Below are positions 20,246-27,396 of a DNA stretch of 64,000 bases, piece after piece. The translations under genes and the position numbers were made by a program. The notes under the pieces were generated by a model that saw nothing but the letters and a program-made list of their open reading frames with translations, had not been told where the DNA came from and searched no databases. The stretch is taken from NCBI GenBank assembly GCA_965197585.1, contig OZ240215.1, positions 512,001 through 576,000 on the forward strand, read 5' to 3'. Origin of the DNA: Dehalococcoidia bacterium. Its GTDB lineage: Bacteria > Chloroflexota > Dehalococcoidia > Plut-88900. Each line of letters opens with the position of its first letter. The first letter of the stretch is position 1.

Positions 20246-21835
20246 ATGCCAGAGATGCCCAAAATCACTGCCTCTGAAGAGCTTGCATCCCTGCTGGATC
20301 AAGGCGCTCCCATCGCCCTGTTGGACGTGCGTGAGCACGGAGAATACAACCTCGCCCACATCCCAGGCGCCTGCCCACTTCCACGACGGCTCATTGAGTA
20401 CCGGCTCCCTCGCCTTGTACCCAATAGGGCGACCAGGATTGTAGTCTGCGATGACGATGGCAGGAGAGCAGCGTTGGCCCTTGGCACGGTGGAACGTATG
20501 AGATATGCGAATGGGTCGGTGTTGGAGGGTGGGATCAACCGCTGGACATCCCTCGGTTACGGGTCCGAGTGGGGTGTCAACGTTCTGAGCAAAGATTTCG
20601 GAGAACGGTTGCAGGTTGAACAGCAGGTTCCGGAAATAACCGCCGAGGAGCTGGAAGGCTGGATATCCCGCGGCGAGCAGTTTGTCATGGTCGACTCCCG
20701 GACGCCGGAGGAGCATCATAATTTCTGTATTCCGGGCAGCCGCAGCCTTCCCGGTGGGGAGCTCGCTTTGCGCGTCTGGGACATGATGGATACCGAGGAT
20801 ACCCCGGTTGTAGTGCATTGTGCAGGCCGTACCCGGAGCATCGTTGGTACGGGCCTTTTGCAGCGTATGGGCGTGAAGCAAATCTACGGGCTGCGGAACG
20901 GAACGATGGGGTGGCAACTGGCGGGGTTCGACTTGGAGAAAGGGTCGGGCCGGGTGACCTTGAATGCGCCATCGGATGAGGCTTTGGGAAGGGCTGAGGC
21001 ATTCGGTCGAAGAGTGGCGGCTGAGGACGGAGTGAACTACTTGACGCCCGACGGACTGCAGAGATTGTTGTCGGAACGGCGTGACGAGAACGTCTATCTC
21101 GTGGATGTGAGAACGCGCGAAGAATTCGACGCAGGCCATATTCCGGGATTCTGGTGGCATCCGGGAGGGCAGGCCGTCCAAGAGAGCGACAACGTGGTTG
21201 GGGTGAAGGCAGGGCAGATAGTCTTTTGCTGTGACGGGATAGCTAGGGCTTCGGTGACAGGCTCCTTCTTCAGGCAGATGGGATACCCGAACGTTCACGT
21301 GGTGGAGGGCGGCACGAAGGCATGGAAGGAAGCGGGACTGGGGCTTGAGTCGGGCTCCCGCGATGCTGGACCCGCCACCTTGGAAGAGGCTCGCCGTCGT
21401 GTCTCTTCACTATCTCCGGGCGAGGTGGACAGGTTGATGGAAGGGTACGCCATAGCGCTGTTCATCGGGACGAGTGCGGAGTTCTCGCAAGGACACCCGC
21501 CGGGCAGCCGATGGGCGCCTCGGGGCTCCCTGGAGCTCCTAGTGGATGGCATGGTGCCCTCCAAGTCGACACCCGTGGTCCTTGTGAGCCCCGAGGGTCG
21601 TGAATCGATACTCGCTGGACTGGCGTTAGTGGATATGGGGTATGAAAGCGTGGCGTCGTTGGATGGAGGTACGCGGGCTTGGGTTGCGGAGGGGCATCCG
21701 TTGGAAAGAGGTCTGTCAGGAGTGATGACACCCCCGGATGATTTGGTGGCTACTGGCTCTGGGCGCAACTTCGCGGGGGCTATAGAGTATTTGAGGTGGG
21801 AGGAAGAGCTGGGGAGGAAGTACGAGCGCGACTAG
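20246..21835 (+). CDS. Four-domain rhodanese-like sulfurtransferase
   Basis: Repeated DVR..E....HIPG motifs; active-site loop VHCAGRTRS in domain 2; C-terminal YLRWE. Confidence 0.92.
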   Translation: MPEMPKITASEELASLLDQGAPIALLDVREHGEYNLAHIPGACPLPRRLIEYRLPRLVPNRATRIVVCDDDGRRAALALGTVERMRYANGSVLEGGINRWTSLGYGSEWGVNVLSKDFGERLQVEQQVPEITAEELEGWISRGEQFVMVDSRTPEEHHNFCIPGSRSLPGGELALRVWDMMDTEDTPVVVHCAGRTRSIVGTGLLQRMGVKQIYGLRNGTMGWQLAGFDLEKGSGRVTLNAPSDEALGRAEAFGRRVAAEDGVNYLTPDGLQRLLSERRDENVYLVDVRTREEFDAGHIPGFWWHPGGQAVQESDNVVGVKAGQIVFCCDGIARASVTGSFFRQMGYPNVHVVEGGTKAWKEAGLGLESGSRDAGPATLEEARRRVSSLSPGEVDRLMEGYAIALFIGTSAEFSQGHPPGSRWAPRGSLELLVDGMVPSKSTPVVLVSPEGRESILAGLALVDMGYESVASLDGGTRAWVAEGHPLERGLSGVMTPPDDLVATGSGRNFAGAIEYLRWEEELGRKYERD

Positions 21836-23394: not shown

Positions 23395-24591
23395 TTGGCA
23401 CAGTCAAACCCGACCTACCCCATGTTCTCCCGACAGGAGATGGACCGCCGACTCGCCCGAGCCCGCTCGCTCATGGCACAAAACGACTTGGACGCACTGC
23501 TGATCACGGGTGAACACAACTTCCACTATTTCGTGGGCGCTGCCCCAAGCATCGGCCCCAACGAGTCCCTGGCCCGACCCTCGGCTTTCATTTTGCCCGC
23601 TGTAGGCGATCCGATAATCGTTTCCCAAGGCCGGGACAACATCGAGCAAGGCACCTACATCACCGACATCCGGGACTATTTCGACGTGTTGCAGTTCCCA
23701 TACGAGCTGGTTGGAGAGGCTTTGCGGGACAGAGGATTGAGCGCCGGGCGGATAGGGGCGGAACTTGGGCAGGAACAGAGAATGGGAGTGCCGGTCGGGG
23801 ACTACCTCAGCATCGTCGGCTCGATGCCCGAGGCCCGGTTTGTTGACGCCGCAGACGTCATCATCAAGACTCGCATGGTCAAGTCGGATGAGGAAGTGTC
23901 ATACATGCGTGAGGCGGCTCGCATTACTGCCAGGGCCCGACATCGTCTGTACACGGACTACTTGACTCCCGGAGTAACCGAGCGCCAGTTGGCGCGCCAG
24001 TTCCAAAAGCTGGTCCTTGAGGAGGGCGCAGACGGCACGTCCTTCGTCCACTTCCAATTTGATATACAGTCGGAGTTGCCGGGGGCTAAGCACGCATTTC
24101 ACTATGACAGGCCTCTGAGACCGGGCGTCATACTGGGCATCGACACCGGGGCCCGGGTCGGGATGTACACCGTCGACTACCCACGTATGGTCTCCCTAGG
24201 CCCGTCCACTGACAGGCAGAGGCGGCTCTACAATCAACTCCTCGAAGTGAACCGCCGTATGGTAGAGGCGCTGAGACCTGGCGTCGAGGCGGCGGACATT
24301 CACAGGGCCGGTGTGCAGGCGATGAAAGACCTGGGAGTAGAGACGGACAACCCTGAAAGGCTCACGGGTGGCAGCCGCATGGGTCACGGGCAAGGGATAC
24401 AGTTCACGGAGCCCCCCAGTGTGACGCCCACCGACCATACGGTACTTGAAGTAGGTTCTGTTATAAGCACGGAGCCGGGAATCGGGGACGATGAGTTGCA
24501 CCTGCTGTGGGAGGACACCCACGTGGTCACAGAGACCGGCTCAGACCTTATCACGACTGAGTCGGACGAGTTACGGGAGGTCGCGTTCTAG
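23395..24591 (+). CDS. M24 family (Xaa-Pro/creatinase-like) metallopeptidase
   Basis: TTG start behind AAGGAG; RMVKSDEE, DTG..YTVD, GHGQG, TEPG, WED ligands. Confidence 0.88.
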   Translation: MAQSNPTYPMFSRQEMDRRLARARSLMAQNDLDALLITGEHNFHYFVGAAPSIGPNESLARPSAFILPAVGDPIIVSQGRDNIEQGTYITDIRDYFDVLQFPYELVGEALRDRGLSAGRIGAELGQEQRMGVPVGDYLSIVGSMPEARFVDAADVIIKTRMVKSDEEVSYMREAARITARARHRLYTDYLTPGVTERQLARQFQKLVLEEGADGTSFVHFQFDIQSELPGAKHAFHYDRPLRPGVILGIDTGARVGMYTVDYPRMVSLGPSTDRQRRLYNQLLEVNRRMVEALRPGVEAADIHRAGVQAMKDLGVETDNPERLTGGSRMGHGQGIQFTEPPSVTPTDHTVLEVGSVISTEPGIGDDELHLLWEDTHVVTETGSDLITTESDELREVAF

Positions 24592-24645
24592 CTGTACAGG
24601 CACGCCCTTACCATTTTTAGCGCCTTAGATAACACCTGTCCACGT

Positions 24646-24674
24646 TTGACATCACTCCTAAACAACGCTAAGCT
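24646..24674 (+). promoter_or_regulatory. sigma70-type promoter of the leader-reductase operon
   Basis: TTGACA(24646-24651)-17 bp-TAAGCT(24669-24674). Confidence 0.7.
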
Positions 24675-24683
24675 TCAGCACTA

Positions 24684-24734
24684 ATGAATAACGGATATTG
24701 GCTTGATAACTGCGTCTGTATGTGCCGGAAATAG
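24684..24734 (+). CDS. Cys-rich leader peptide MNNGYWLDNCVCMCRK (putative attenuator peptide)
   Basis: Read directly from sequence; ATG 9 nt after the -10 box; codons TGC GTC TGT ATG TGC just before TAG; upstream of a sulfite reductase-type gene. Confidence 0.78.
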   Translation: MNNGYWLDNCVCMCRK

Positions 24735-24765
24735 GGTCGGCGCTAATCCGGCTTGGCACAGCGTT

Positions 24766-24804
24766 GCGCCCCTACGATGAAGTCTAATCGAAGGGGCGTT
24801 TTTT
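24766..24804 (+). terminator. Intrinsic terminator (attenuator) in the 5' leader of the reductase gene
   Basis: GCGCCCCT-A-CGAT-loop-ATCG-A-AGGGGCGT followed by a T run (TTTTTTATT), 35 nt before the ATG. Confidence 0.85.
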
Positions 24805-24838
24805 ATTGCAATAGAGAAATAGGGGAGATCAGGGCTAA

Positions 24839-26653
24839 ATGACTACCGTTGAAAGAGACCCTTCCATAAAGGATAAAGCCGGTCTTGACTACTCAAAGGG
24901 GATAATTCCCTACCTGCCCCAGGAAGTCTCCGACTTCGAGACCGAGGTAACAAGCTTCCAAAAGGGCGGTTGGGAAGACCCCCTGAAATTCACTGCCTAT
25001 AGGCTCGTCCGAGGCATATACGGTCAGCGCCAACCTGATCTCCACATGATCCGCATCAAGATGCCTGCCGGCAGCCTTACCGCAGACCAACTCGATGCCG
25101 TAGGCGAAGTCGTTGATAAGTACGTTCCCCTCAACAAGGGCCACGTCACCACCCGGGAGAACATCCAGCTTCACTTCGTAAATTTGGAAGATACCCCTGA
25201 TGTCTTGCGGATACTCGGGGAGGCGGGTCTCTCTACCCGTGAGGCCTGCGGCAACACCGTGCGAAACGTCATCGGCTGCCCCCTCTCCGGCGTCACCCCC
25301 GACGAGCCCTTCTACGTAGGCCCCTATCTGGCGGCCTTCGCCCGGTGGTTCGTACGGCATCCCCAGGCCCAGGCGCTCCCCCGAAAGTTCAAAGTAGCCT
25401 TCGCTTCTTGCAATGACGACTGTGTCGTCACCGCTATCCATGACCTCGCCTTCAAGCCCAGGGTCCGGGTCGACGAGAATGGCGTCGAGCGCCGTGGCTT
25501 TGAAATGATCACCGGCGGCGGCACCTCCATCATGCCCCGACTCGCCTACACCCTCTACGACTTCGTCCCTGTCGAGGACTTCCTCCGGGTCAGCGAGGCC
25601 GTAGTCCGCATCTTTAACCGCACGGACGAACTCCGACGTAACCGAATGAAGGCCCGGATCAAGTTCTACATCGACCGGGTAGGCATCGACGTTTTCCGTG
25701 AGCTGGTCGAAGAAGAGTTGAAGCAGCCCTGGGCCCAGGAGCCCTACGATCCCGAGCCTCTCATGGAACTCCCTCCCGAGCTCATTGACGAGCCCCCCGC
25801 CCTTGTGCCTGTAGAGAGCAATGGGCAGCGGTCTCCTGCCTTCGACCGGTGGGTCTCGAGCAACGTACACCGGCAGAAACAGGACGGCTACAACGTCGTC
25901 ACTGTCAAGCTTCCTCTCGGCGATATCTCCACCGAGCAGTTCCCCATTCTCAGCCGCATCGCCCGCGACTTTGCCGGTGGCCGCATCCGGACCACCGTGG
26001 AGCAGAACGTGGTTTACCGGTGGGTCCCCACAGGCGTGTTGAAAGAAGTCTGGCGTCAGCTTAAGGACGCAGGCCTCGGGGAAGCAGGAGCCGGAGAGAT
26101 CACGGATGTCGTCTCCTGCCCCGGCACGGACAGCTGCAAGCTCGGCATAACATCTTCAATGGGTCTGGGTCAGGCCGTCGGCGATGCCCTTAGGGAGGCG
26201 GCCTATGAGGACCCGCTAGTCAGGTCCCTCCACGTGAAGATCAGTGGCTGCCCCAATGGTTGCGCCCGGCATCACATCGCAAACATCGGATTCCACGGAG
26301 CAGCTACCCGCGGAGCCAACAAGAGCCAGATACCCTCCTACGAACTTTTCATCGGCGGCAGCTTCGGCAGCGATGAAGATGCCCGATTTGGCAAGAGAGT
26401 CAAGACAAAGGTACCTGCCAAGAAGGTCCCCAGCCTCGTGAAGGATATTGTCCACTTCTACCAGAACGAGCGCGAGCCCCAGGAGGTTTTCAACCGCTTC
26501 GTCGACCGCGTCGGCACCCAGCCCTTTGAAACCCTCGCCGGCGCCTACAAAGAGACGGGCCCCTTGAACAAGGAGAACCTCAACACCTACATGGACTGGG
26601 GAAAAACCCGCATGTTCAAGGTCGAGCGCGGCGAGGGAGAGTGCGCGGTATAA
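24839..26653 (+). CDS. Siroheme/[4Fe-4S] sulfite (or nitrite) reductase
   Basis: GIYGQRQ, TTRENIQLH, ACGNTVRN, LPRKFK, CPGTDSC and GCPNGC ligands; Cys leader favours sulfite. Confidence 0.92.
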   Translation: MTTVERDPSIKDKAGLDYSKGIIPYLPQEVSDFETEVTSFQKGGWEDPLKFTAYRLVRGIYGQRQPDLHMIRIKMPAGSLTADQLDAVGEVVDKYVPLNKGHVTTRENIQLHFVNLEDTPDVLRILGEAGLSTREACGNTVRNVIGCPLSGVTPDEPFYVGPYLAAFARWFVRHPQAQALPRKFKVAFASCNDDCVVTAIHDLAFKPRVRVDENGVERRGFEMITGGGTSIMPRLAYTLYDFVPVEDFLRVSEAVVRIFNRTDELRRNRMKARIKFYIDRVGIDVFRELVEEELKQPWAQEPYDPEPLMELPPELIDEPPALVPVESNGQRSPAFDRWVSSNVHRQKQDGYNVVTVKLPLGDISTEQFPILSRIARDFAGGRIRTTVEQNVVYRWVPTGVLKEVWRQLKDAGLGEAGAGEITDVVSCPGTDSCKLGITSSMGLGQAVGDALREAAYEDPLVRSLHVKISGCPNGCARHHIANIGFHGAATRGANKSQIPSYELFIGGSFGSDEDARFGKRVKTKVPAKKVPSLVKDIVHFYQNEREPQEVFNRFVDRVGTQPFETLAGAYKETGPLNKENLNTYMDWGKTRMFKVERGEGECAV

Positions 26654-26660
26654 GGCTTGC

Positions 26661-27029
26661 ATGGGCATAAGCCGATCCAGGGCGCAGGACTACGCGGAGG
26701 AAATCCTCGAAAAACCGCGCGCTGCCATTCCTCTCACCCTCAAGCGGTCGAAGTCCGGCGTAACCCTCTTGCACCGCGGTCGTGCCGTGACCAAGTGCCA
26801 CGCAACGGGAGTCGGAGAGTTGCAAGCCGAGTTCATGGCCGAAGCCCTCGGCGCGGAATTGCCTGAGCCTGACTCCTCTACGTCGATTGAAGTCCCGGCA
26901 GGAGTCTTCTACCGGGCCATTGCCATCTCATCCCTAGACCTCCGCAAGCCCGAAGCCCGCGTCCTCCTCGAACAGTACCTGGCCACTGCCCAGATGCAGC
27001 GCTCAGGTATGCGTAGCATAGAGGCCTAA
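26661..27029 (+). CDS. Hypothetical protein
   Basis: 122-aa ORF 7 nt after the reductase stop, genome-like codon usage. Confidence 0.7.
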   Translation: MGISRSRAQDYAEEILEKPRAAIPLTLKRSKSGVTLLHRGRAVTKCHATGVGELQAEFMAEALGAELPEPDSSTSIEVPAGVFYRAIAISSLDLRKPEARVLLEQYLATAQMQRSGMRSIEA

Positions 27030-27051: not shown

Positions 27052-27396
27052 GTGCTGCTAGTATTAGAAGTAGAAGAATCGGAGAACAGCCTTTTCGACG
27101 TGACCCGCAGCTTCCAGACCATCGGAGACCCGAGGCCCATCTCGAAAGTCGCCGCCTTCGCGCCCGACGGAACTGAAGGCGTATACGAGGTAGTCGGCTG
27201 GTCTTCCGAGGGCGCTGTAACCGCCTTCGCCGCTCTGGTTGATGACTCCGGTGAAGGGGCCGCCCTACTCGTCTATGGCGGAGAAGAGGGCATTCGCCTC
27301 CGGCCCCAGGACTCGGCTGACGACTGGTCTCTCGAAGATGCCTCTCAGTGGGGCGAGGTCTTCCTGCTCCTGGATCGCGAAACCTTCACAGAGTGA
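27052..27396 (+). CDS. Hypothetical acidic protein
   Basis: 114-aa ORF, GTG start behind GGAG; DDSGEG..LVYGGEEGIRL..W......QWGE looks like a conserved motif. Confidence 0.7.
   Translation: MLLVLEVEESENSLFDVTRSFQTIGDPRPISKVAAFAPDGTEGVYEVVGWSSEGAVTAFAALVDDSGEGAALLVYGGEEGIRLRPQDSADDWSLEDASQWGEVFLLLDRETFTE

Follow-up and report, generated by a model that had tools for sequence, protein, structure and literature searches.

The locus described here raises the question of whether a sulfite reductase gene of an uncultured member of the Dehalococcoidia is controlled by a leader peptide that senses the supply of charged cysteine (Cys) tRNA. The stretch of DNA analysed (the window) comprises 64,000 nucleotides (nt) of a Dehalococcoidia bacterium (assembly GCA_965197585.1, contig OZ240215.1, positions 512,001 to 576,000 of the forward strand), and coordinates are counted from its first letter unless another record is named. 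Upstream of a gene for a NirA/SirA-type reductase, the window contains a compact element of ~125 nt overall, consisting of a promoter, a small open reading frame (sORF) with several Cys codons and RNA segments that can fold into an intrinsic terminator or into alternative helices. A previous interpretation of this DNA, made from the letters alone (the sequence-only reading), had proposed that a ribosome on a Cys leader peptide decides between antiterminator and terminator, in a layout like that of the trp, his and leu attenuators. Comparison with orthologous loci argues for this core proposal, and the leader ORF, the Cys codons, the terminator and a mutually exclusive antiterminator of such a layout are all present. 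The leader is most probably a transcription attenuator in which a ribosome on a leaderless or near-leaderless mRNA senses Cys-tRNA, as judged from comparative sequence analysis. The element and the genes behind it are composed of the following features:

24646-24651, + strand: -35 box TTGACA, read from the sequence
24669-24674, + strand: -10 box TAAGCT (TAnnnT), 17 nt 3' of the -35 box, read from the sequence
24684-24734, + strand: leader sORF MNNGYWLDNCVCMCRK, 16 codons plus the stop codon TAG (24732-34), by translation
24711-13 (TGC), 24717-19 (TGT) and 24723-25 (TGC), + strand: putative sensing Cys codons 10, 12 and 14
24722-24743, + strand: hairpin P1, the putative anti-antiterminator, with 5' arm 24722-28 (codons 13-15), loop 24729-36 and 3' arm 24737-43
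24734-24771, + strand: antiterminator, in which 24734-43 (GGGUCGGCGC) pairs with 24761-66 and 24768-71 (GCGUUG, GCCC), C 24767 being bulged
24766-24804, + strand: intrinsic terminator, with 5' arm 24766-78, loop 24779-86, 3' arm 24787-99 and U-run 24799-24804
24822-24827, + strand: Shine-Dalgarno sequence GGGGAG of the reductase gene, read from the sequence
24839-26653, + strand: sulfite (or nitrite) reductase, NirA/SirA-type, siroheme [4Fe-4S], 604 amino acids (aa), by Pfam domains
26661-27029 (122 aa) and about 27079-27396 (105 aa), + strand: two small conserved ORFs 3' of the reductase gene

The promoter TTGACA-N17-TAAGCT and the ATG at 24684 lie where the sequence-only reading had placed them, and translation of the sORF yields the residues C-V-C-M-C (Met codon 24720-22) and thus the three Cys and one Met within five codons that it had described. 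The ATG is located 9 nt past the -10 box. This arrangement recurs in orthologous loci, in which TTGAC(N), 17-18 nt and TAnnnT precede 30 of 32 Cys-sORF leaders and the start codon follows 9-10 nt later in 28 of the 32; an apparent exception to this spacing (locus L058) fits if the second ATG is the start codon, again giving 16 codons. As transcription would start ~7 nt past the -10 box, the 5' untranslated region (UTR) is predicted to be 0 to ~4 nt long and the leader mRNA would be leaderless or nearly so. A distance of 9-10 nt between the -10 box and the start codon also leaves no room for a Shine-Dalgarno sequence, as had been pointed out for the window. No such sequence precedes the sORF, and the reductase gene is preceded by GGGGAG. 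The terminator stem contains an internal A-A mismatch and an 8-nt loop.

Within its own genome, the Cys leader exceeds what the background provides. In the open frames of this genome that span 300 codons or more, 1.09% of the residues are Cys, versus three Cys in the 16 codons of the sORF. On both strands of the 3.43-Mb genome (6.9 Mb), 463 Cys sORFs were identified (ATG or GTG start, 12-20 codons, at least two Cys among the last eight codons), only two of which are followed by a terminator 25-50 nt past the stop codon, namely the leader site and one weak case at genome position 2030793 with a terminator of -13.6 kcal/mol and a poor U-run. A strict promoter followed by a sORF of 6-35 codons occurs at 29 sites in the genome, and at least two Cys within six residues are encoded at the leader only. 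The strict promoter-plus-sORF scan of the genome revealed no multi-locus Cys regulon, the leader locus alone being recovered, and the region 5' of a cysK/M-like gene present in the genome contains no Cys leader.

Orthologous reductase loci were obtained from 60 relatives' genomes (L002-L031), a metagenome collection (L032-L043) and species-representative genomes comprising Dehalococcoidia, SAR202 and Chloroflexota metagenome-assembled genomes (MAGs; L044-L088). Usable loci, in which the match reaches the N-terminus and at least 150 nt of upstream sequence are available, numbered 79 out of 88 (nine were dropped) and provided 67 distinct upstream regions, with orthologous reductases of 52-100% protein identity. 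A Cys sORF on the coding strand is present in 33 of these 67 regions and in none of the 67 reverse complements. In 29 of the 67 regions, and again in none of the reverse complements, the Cys sORF is accompanied by a terminator 25-50 nt past the stop codon, while four further regions contain a Cys sORF but no terminator under the same criterion. The contrast between the Cys-leader counts and both controls is large, despite a criterion that was set post hoc. Within the family, the pattern promoter-ATG-N24-TGYNNNTGY is found in exactly one copy in each of the 11 genomes that have the reductase and in zero copies in the sole genome that lacks it, and a reversed-pattern control gave no matches in 401 genomes. 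Two extra class-wide matches to the pattern were judged to be due to chance: in genome G400 an in-frame stop codon precedes the Cys codons, and in genome G378 the frame remains open for at least 40 codons and lies ahead of a membrane protein gene. Among members of the genus, homology starts at the -35 box and the flanks farther upstream are unrelated; as the conserved block starts at the promoter, the leader belongs to the reductase gene and not to the upstream peptidase gene.

The ATG, the TAG and the length of 16 codons are invariant in all 11 family leaders, without insertions or deletions, and C-x-C-x-C is present in 10 of them and C-x-C in the eleventh. Contrastingly, residues 2-9 vary among the family leaders, which begin for example with MNNGYWLDN, MNTRYWSEF, MIIKIHPDP, MNIWMLSDL or MHAGKDKKV. 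Synonymous TGC/TGT changes occur at the leader Cys codons, and the change at codon 14 is compensated in the 3' arm of P1. In other clades, whose reductases are 52-59% identical, the leaders are unalignable, have 16-17 codons and carry CxC, CC, CCC or CCCC near their end, as in MTISYDFDVICACRNGP, MQNRISNLVCFCTVGQ, MRNRPVKKIIRLCCGT and MTIKLTTGSRRLCCCT. Since only frame, length and Cys codons are shared, conservation points to codon sensing rather than to a functional peptide or an untranslated RNA. Locus L015 encodes a sORF of ~42 codons (counted by eye) that ends in CCCIC, shows the same design and fails the length criterion, so that sORF length is not always 16-17 codons; by eye, its stop codon lies in the loop of an apparent perfect 12-bp hairpin, which is followed by a terminator-like hairpin.

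An independent gene encoding a Cys-rich micropeptide (metal- or redox-active, for instance), with its own terminator and with separate transcription of the reductase, would also account for a complete promoter-ORF-terminator unit and for a conserved C-terminal Cys motif. However, this unit occurs only beside the reductase and only once per genome, the non-Cys residues are unconserved between clades and the Cys pattern shifts between CxCxC, CxC, CC and CCCC. The 34 nt between the U-run and the reductase start contain a Shine-Dalgarno sequence but no conserved promoter, and a conserved antiterminator that overlaps the terminator (see below) would have no role in a plain terminator. A micropeptide gene of this kind is very unlikely, and the pattern of conservation fits a leader whose Cys codons are read by the ribosome.

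Secondary structures were derived with RNAalifold from alignments of the 11 family leaders (A1), of a second clade (A2, seven sequences) and of a third clade (A3, nine sequences), as well as from a truncated version of A1 (A4) that extends from the stop codon as far as the terminator loop and represents the RNA that would be available for pairing when the sORF is occupied by a ribosome and the 3' arm of the terminator has yet to be transcribed. The anatomy, conservation and covariation of the three helices are direct observations on these alignments. With no structure supplied, A1 returns P1 and the terminator. The terminator, which the sequence-only reading had located at 24766-24799 plus a T-tract, is well supported: T6 is found at 24799-24804, the fold reaches -21.0 to -21.7 kcal/mol (z -4.0 to -5.4, with at most 1 of 200 shuffles as stable; for -21.0 kcal/mol with z -5.4, none of 200), and 93% of cells are paired in A1, where three pairs are changed on both sides. 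It starts 30-43 nt past the sORF stop codon in 25 of the 28 leaders tested. In P1 (-10.5 kcal/mol, z -2.45 in the window), the final sense codons of the sORF are paired to bases immediately past the stop codon, and the TAG is located in the loop. Pairing is found in 96% of cells. In different clades, two pairs switch from C-G to U-A, one of which involves the third base of Cys codon 14 (alignment columns 47/62). Taken together, P1 and the terminator show 94.3% of cells paired and five pairs changed on both sides in A1, with a covariation score of 0.220 versus 0.142 for shuffles (0 of 500 shuffles reach the score), and pairing drops to 32-52% when the partners are slid.

On A4, RNAalifold returns an antiterminator of 10 pairs with one bulge, which can also be counted on A1. 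It has 98% of cells paired, compared with 32-63% in slid controls, and a covariation score of 0.309 versus 0.239 for shuffles, which 2 of 500 shuffles reach; the changes are mostly from G-U to A-U or G-C, and two pairs are changed on both sides. Six bases of the antiterminator also belong to the 3' arm of P1, and six others are the first 6 nt of the terminator 5' arm, at the foot of the stem, so that the three helices are mutually exclusive. The 5' strand of the antiterminator has the final base of the TAG as its first position and would therefore be covered by a ribosome that terminates there. In the second clade, RNAalifold yields P1 with the Cys codons as its 5' arm plus a terminator (A2), and in the third clade a small hairpin around the stop codon plus a terminator (A3). 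A G-run directly past the stop codon and a C-run in the 5' arm of the terminator are the theme across clades.

An alignment of orthologous leaders, suggested with the original proposal as a check for a conserved Cys sORF and covarying helices, thus recovers both, yet it changes which helices are involved. Two larger protector helices had been proposed, GCCGGA/TCCGGC and TGTGCC/GGCACA. Both can form in the window and are used by its single-sequence minimum free energy structure, but across the 11 relatives the first is paired in only 60% of cells and the second at 2-6 of 6 positions per relative. Both were rejected as conserved protectors in favour of the smaller hairpin P1 (24722-28/24737-43). 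The antiterminator had been assigned the right 5' strand, in a pairing that can form in the window, but in a register with 80-87% of cells paired versus 98% for the conserved one, which pairs 5 nt farther upstream.

The same folds bear on the possibility of translational attenuation as in mycobacteria, in which the hairpin and U-run would not be the regulated step. Mycobacterial polycysteine leaderless sORFs are reported to act in this way (bioRxiv 10.1101/834739), and both regulatory layers can coexist. In contrast to a mycobacterial-type duplex that hides the downstream Shine-Dalgarno sequence, the consensus fold contains no helix over the GGGGAG of the reductase gene, where a GGAG-like sequence is kept across the family leaders, and the conserved alternative helix competes with the terminator stem instead of the Shine-Dalgarno sequence. 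In addition, a G+C-rich stem with a direct U-run is found at a fixed distance from the stop codon in the same 25 of 28 leaders. Purely translational control is accordingly hard to reconcile with the locus, and we give it very little credence relative to control by the terminator.

Independent information on what is sensed comes from a sister lineage. The closest reductase orthologue outside the family (69% identity) is encoded in genome G042 (locus L012), where a T-box (RF00230, 118.7 bits, L012:3420-3671, - strand) instead of a sORF is located directly 5' of the reductase gene. Alignment with the Rfam consensus places UGC at the specifier position, with a purine as the next base, and the T-box bulge is UGGA, fitting a U73 discriminator. 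T-boxes are assigned to an amino acid by specifier-reading rules, and U73 is a feature of tRNA-Cys; the genome of the window encodes a single tRNA-Cys(GCA), which carries U73. The L012 T-box is apparently Cys-specific. If the specifier and U73 rules hold, the same gene would be controlled by tRNA-Cys charging via termination in both lineages and, if this is correct, the Cys sORF leader and the T-box would be interchangeable at the reductase gene as two different sensors. Both sense tRNA charging and choose between terminator and antiterminator; the T-box, however, binds uncharged tRNA directly via ~220 nt of structured RNA, whereas the window leader would use a translated sORF instead. As a separate observation, a c-di-GMP-II riboswitch (55.2 bits, just above the cut-off) was identified ~1 kb 5' of the T-box, at L012:4703-4784 (- strand).

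A riboswitch-like or protein-controlled switch, in which a metabolite, protein or tRNA flips the helices and the sORF is incidental and untranslated, is compatible with three covarying helices, which by themselves need no ribosome, and in the sister lineage the orthologous gene has a T-box in this role. Nevertheless, a search of positions 23500-26000 with the covariance models of Rfam 15 at E up to 10 gave no match to the leader, T-box RF00230 included, but two chance-level matches only, both within the reductase coding region. Only ~35 nt separate the stop codon from the terminator, and no conserved structure of aptamer size is present. Furthermore, the fixed promoter-ATG distance, the invariant stop codon and the length of 16-17 codons are retained despite freely changing first nine codons, and the Cys codons recur in clades with otherwise unalignable leaders, all of which is hard to explain without translation. 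We regard such a switch as improbable and favour a sensor that is read by the ribosome.

The following course of events, from transcription initiation and leader translation to ribosome positions and the cysteine response, is inferred. Transcription would begin at the AUG or no more than a few bases from it, and the 16-codon leader would be translated as a leaderless or near-leaderless mRNA. With plentiful Cys-tRNA, the ribosome would reach the UAG and its footprint would lie over ~10 nt past the stop codon (24734-43); after its release, 24734-43 would be locked in P1 with the last codons of the sORF. In either state, with the ribosome at the UAG or with P1 formed, the terminator at 24766-24804 would form and transcription would stop before the reductase gene. 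With scarce Cys-tRNA, the ribosome would stall once Cys codon 12 or 14 has entered the A site, thereby covering the 5' arm of P1 (24722-28), the classical ribosome footprint extending ~12-13 nt downstream of the first A-site base. The strand 24734-43 would become free to pair with 24761-71, the lower part of the terminator stem would be sequestered, and RNA polymerase would continue into the sulfite reductase gene and the two small genes. More reductase would then supply more sulfide for cysteine synthesis, potentially via the cysK/M-like enzyme. If the leader is not translated at all, P1 is expected to form and transcription to terminate. The direction of regulation is sensible, as sulfite reductase supplies sulfide for cysteine and a cysK/M-like gene is present.

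Several observations weigh against attenuation as formulated here, or against the strength of its support. Under the criterion used, 34 of the 67 orthologous upstream regions do not contain a Cys sORF; the criterion for the 67 regions was written after inspection of the data, and related genomes are non-independent samples. The -10 box TAAGCT is a weak match that agrees with TATAAT at only three of six positions, and a simple consensus scan listed neither the leader promoter nor the terminator. With respect to the helices, the antiterminator of the window alone (-16.5 kcal/mol, z -0.8) is no better than shuffles, and the per-sequence duplex z-scores of the 1:2 and 2:3 pairings lie for the most part between -1 and -3, and good pairing between G+C-rich segments is to be expected by chance. 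In the clade with CC leaders, the antiterminator is short (approximately GGGG/CCCC plus a few pairs, -9 to -14 kcal/mol). Folding with simulated ribosome footprints, which had likewise been suggested with the original proposal, failed to distinguish a stalled ribosome, a ribosome at the stop codon and free RNA; this masked-footprint folding, in which covered bases were forced unpaired and pre-pairing of the terminator 5' arm was scored, was crude and its terminator boundaries were inconsistently chosen. A ribosome stalled at codon 10 would probably be too far upstream to cover the 5' arm of P1. Finally, contigs from RNA libraries run across the terminator. These come from four metatranscriptome runs that cover only 90-95% relatives, as assembled contigs that possibly include DNA, and in two runs contigs join the upstream gene, the leader and the reductase gene; such assemblies speak neither for attenuation nor against it. 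Run X20 contains a contig of depth 4.1 that stops at 24715 and a ~9-fold deeper one (35.6) whose first position is 24692. Since neither the ends nor the strand of transcripts can be read from contigs, and since DNA may have contributed to them, this jump counts only as a hint regarding a transcript start at the start codon.

Compared with known systems, the leader shares with the classical attenuators (trp, his, leu, thr and ilv of proteobacteria; trp and ilvB of Actinobacteria) a leader ORF enriched in the sensed codon, overlapping 1:2, 2:3 and 3:4 helices and an intrinsic terminator, with ribosome position picking the fold. Unlike in these attenuators, the amino acid sensed would be cysteine, the leader ORF has no Shine-Dalgarno sequence and starts 9-10 nt past the -10 box, and region 1 is formed by the final three sense codons, with the stop codon in the 1:2 loop. 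Its host is an uncultured member of the Dehalococcoidia, and it precedes a sulfite reductase gene instead of a whole pathway operon.

That Cys-rich leaderless sORFs control sulfur genes in Actinobacteria, as the sequence-only reading had stated, is exemplified by mycobacteria. Polycysteine leaderless sORFs of mycobacteria have been shown experimentally to be Cys-responsive attenuators (Canestrari et al. 2020; bioRxiv 10.1101/834739). In that report, ribosome stalling at the Cys codons lifts repression, and the case that was dissected is translational, with an RNA duplex that hides the Shine-Dalgarno sequence and no intrinsic terminator, the other loci being left open (10.1101/834739); a 2026 paper likewise describes these sORFs as translation attenuation (PMC13236596). 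Like the window leader, the mycobacterial sORFs were unannotated, carry Cys codons near the C-terminus and are located 5' of cysteine or sulfur genes, but they have consecutive Cys codons and occupy ~six or more loci per genome, termed a 'ribulon' (10.1101/834739). The window family, in contrast, has alternating Cys (CxCxC), a canonical terminator plus antiterminator and one locus found per genome. Two or more consecutive Cys codons are absent from the window leader (C-V-C-M-C) and present in other Dehalococcoidia clades.

A closer parallel in mechanism is the uORFC-8-2 motif 5' of cysS in Rhodobacterales, a predicted Cys-codon attenuator with an intrinsic terminator (Brewer et al. 2021, PMC8632094). 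As described there, conserved Cys codons at positions 14-15 lie inside the first stem and a U-run terminator follows, as in the window leader, but the motif belongs to another phylum, precedes a cysteinyl-tRNA synthetase gene and has tandem Cys, and its leaderless status is unclaimed (PMC8632094). The two are likened by description, the window having no Rfam match. In view of this prediction, an upstream ORF with Cys codons combined with an intrinsic terminator is not new as a concept. Cys leader peptides without conserved terminator hairpins were also reported for Actinobacteria, for which Rho-dependent termination was suggested (Seliverstov et al. 2005, PMC1262725); in the window leader, the terminator is the best-supported part. 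A search of the full-text literature, with supplements and subscription journals outside its coverage, found no Cys-codon attenuator described for a sulfite reductase gene or for any member of the Chloroflexota, Dehalococcoidia included, in line with the remark in the sequence-only reading that no Cys-codon terminator attenuator was known from Chloroflexota. What is proposed here is leader-peptide transcription attenuation for cysteine on leaderless or near-leaderless mRNAs in several Dehalococcoidia clades, and not a new principle.

The gene behind the leader encodes a protein with NIR_SIR (E 1e-52) and NIR_SIR_ferr (E 5e-35) domains (Pfam), and its best NCBIfam match is to the NirA family with 266 bits, below the cut-off. 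Sulfite is the likely substrate, in view of the Cys leader, the T-box in the sister lineage and a putative ATP-sulfurylase neighbour elsewhere: in L019 and L020, the sequence just 5' of the reductase gene reads by eye as the 3' end of what is presumably an ATP-sulfurylase gene. In the 92%-complete genome of the window, ATP sulfurylase (PF01747) was not found with the queries used, and the same search for an adenosine 5'-phosphosulfate (APS) or 3'-phosphoadenosine 5'-phosphosulfate (PAPS) reductase gave a single PAPS-reductase-like match of 21.8 bits, below the cut-off. The sulfite may derive from sources other than sulfate activation.

The first of the two small ORFs (26661-27029) begins 8 nt past the reductase stop codon. 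By tblastn, this 122-aa ORF is located 3' of the reductase in all family loci as well as in L012 and L013, with 62-97% identity, and the 105-aa ORF was found in genera g1 and g2. Neither small ORF matched Pfam, permissive thresholds included, or NCBIfam, and the 122-aa ORF, the only one queried there, had no match in the protein Atlas. The two ORFs are probably co-transcribed and co-regulated with the reductase gene, and possibly encode reductase-associated proteins under the same attenuator.

A broader view, which we offer tentatively and consider plausible rather than probable, is that truly leaderless classical attenuation is class-wide in Dehalococcoidia, gates sulfite reduction alone and was naturally exchanged for a T-box in a sister lineage. 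A 70S ribosome would load on the 5' AUG as it emerges from RNA polymerase, the fixed track of 16-17 codons would serve as a timer, and stalling at codons 12-14 would flip a minimal three-helix switch with the stop codon in the loop of the first hairpin. Sulfite derived from organosulfur compounds, and not activated sulfate, would be the regulated entry to cysteine, and the sister lineage would have replaced the ribosome sensor by a Cys T-box.

To our knowledge, almost nothing is known about gene regulation in Chloroflexota. If attenuation operates as proposed, cysteine would join the amino acids under a full terminator-type leader-peptide attenuator, in uncultured organisms of this phylum, and the leader would unite two themes that have so far been separate, the leaderless sensory sORFs of mycobacteria and the intrinsic-terminator attenuation of proteobacteria. 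The element is small and makes clear mutational predictions, and its fixed sORF length and promoter-AUG spacing would make it a good system for studying the synchrony of transcription with leaderless translation. A previously unrecognised sORF can now be annotated in many MAGs. For a NirA-like reductase whose substrate is ambiguous by family models, the leader favours sulfite, and it suggests that sulfur assimilation is controlled at sulfite reduction in these marine and sponge-associated bacteria.

Additional observations concern the surroundings of the leader and the remaining genome. Another sulfur-transfer gene lies nearby, as a 529-aa protein with four rhodanese domains is encoded ~3 kb 5' of the leader (20246-21835, + strand). 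In L007, L008 and L009, several copies of the repeat GTTCAATCAA(N), which is absent from the window, are located ~100-250 nt 5' of the leader promoter and could represent a repeat element or an array of binding sites. Four of the strict-promoter sites in the genome (G000:C1 600909, 1452151, 2466428 and 1870308) are followed at leaderless distance by near-identical short frames starting with MANH(S/T/P)P, which is suggestive of either a repeated element or a group of related leaderless gene starts.

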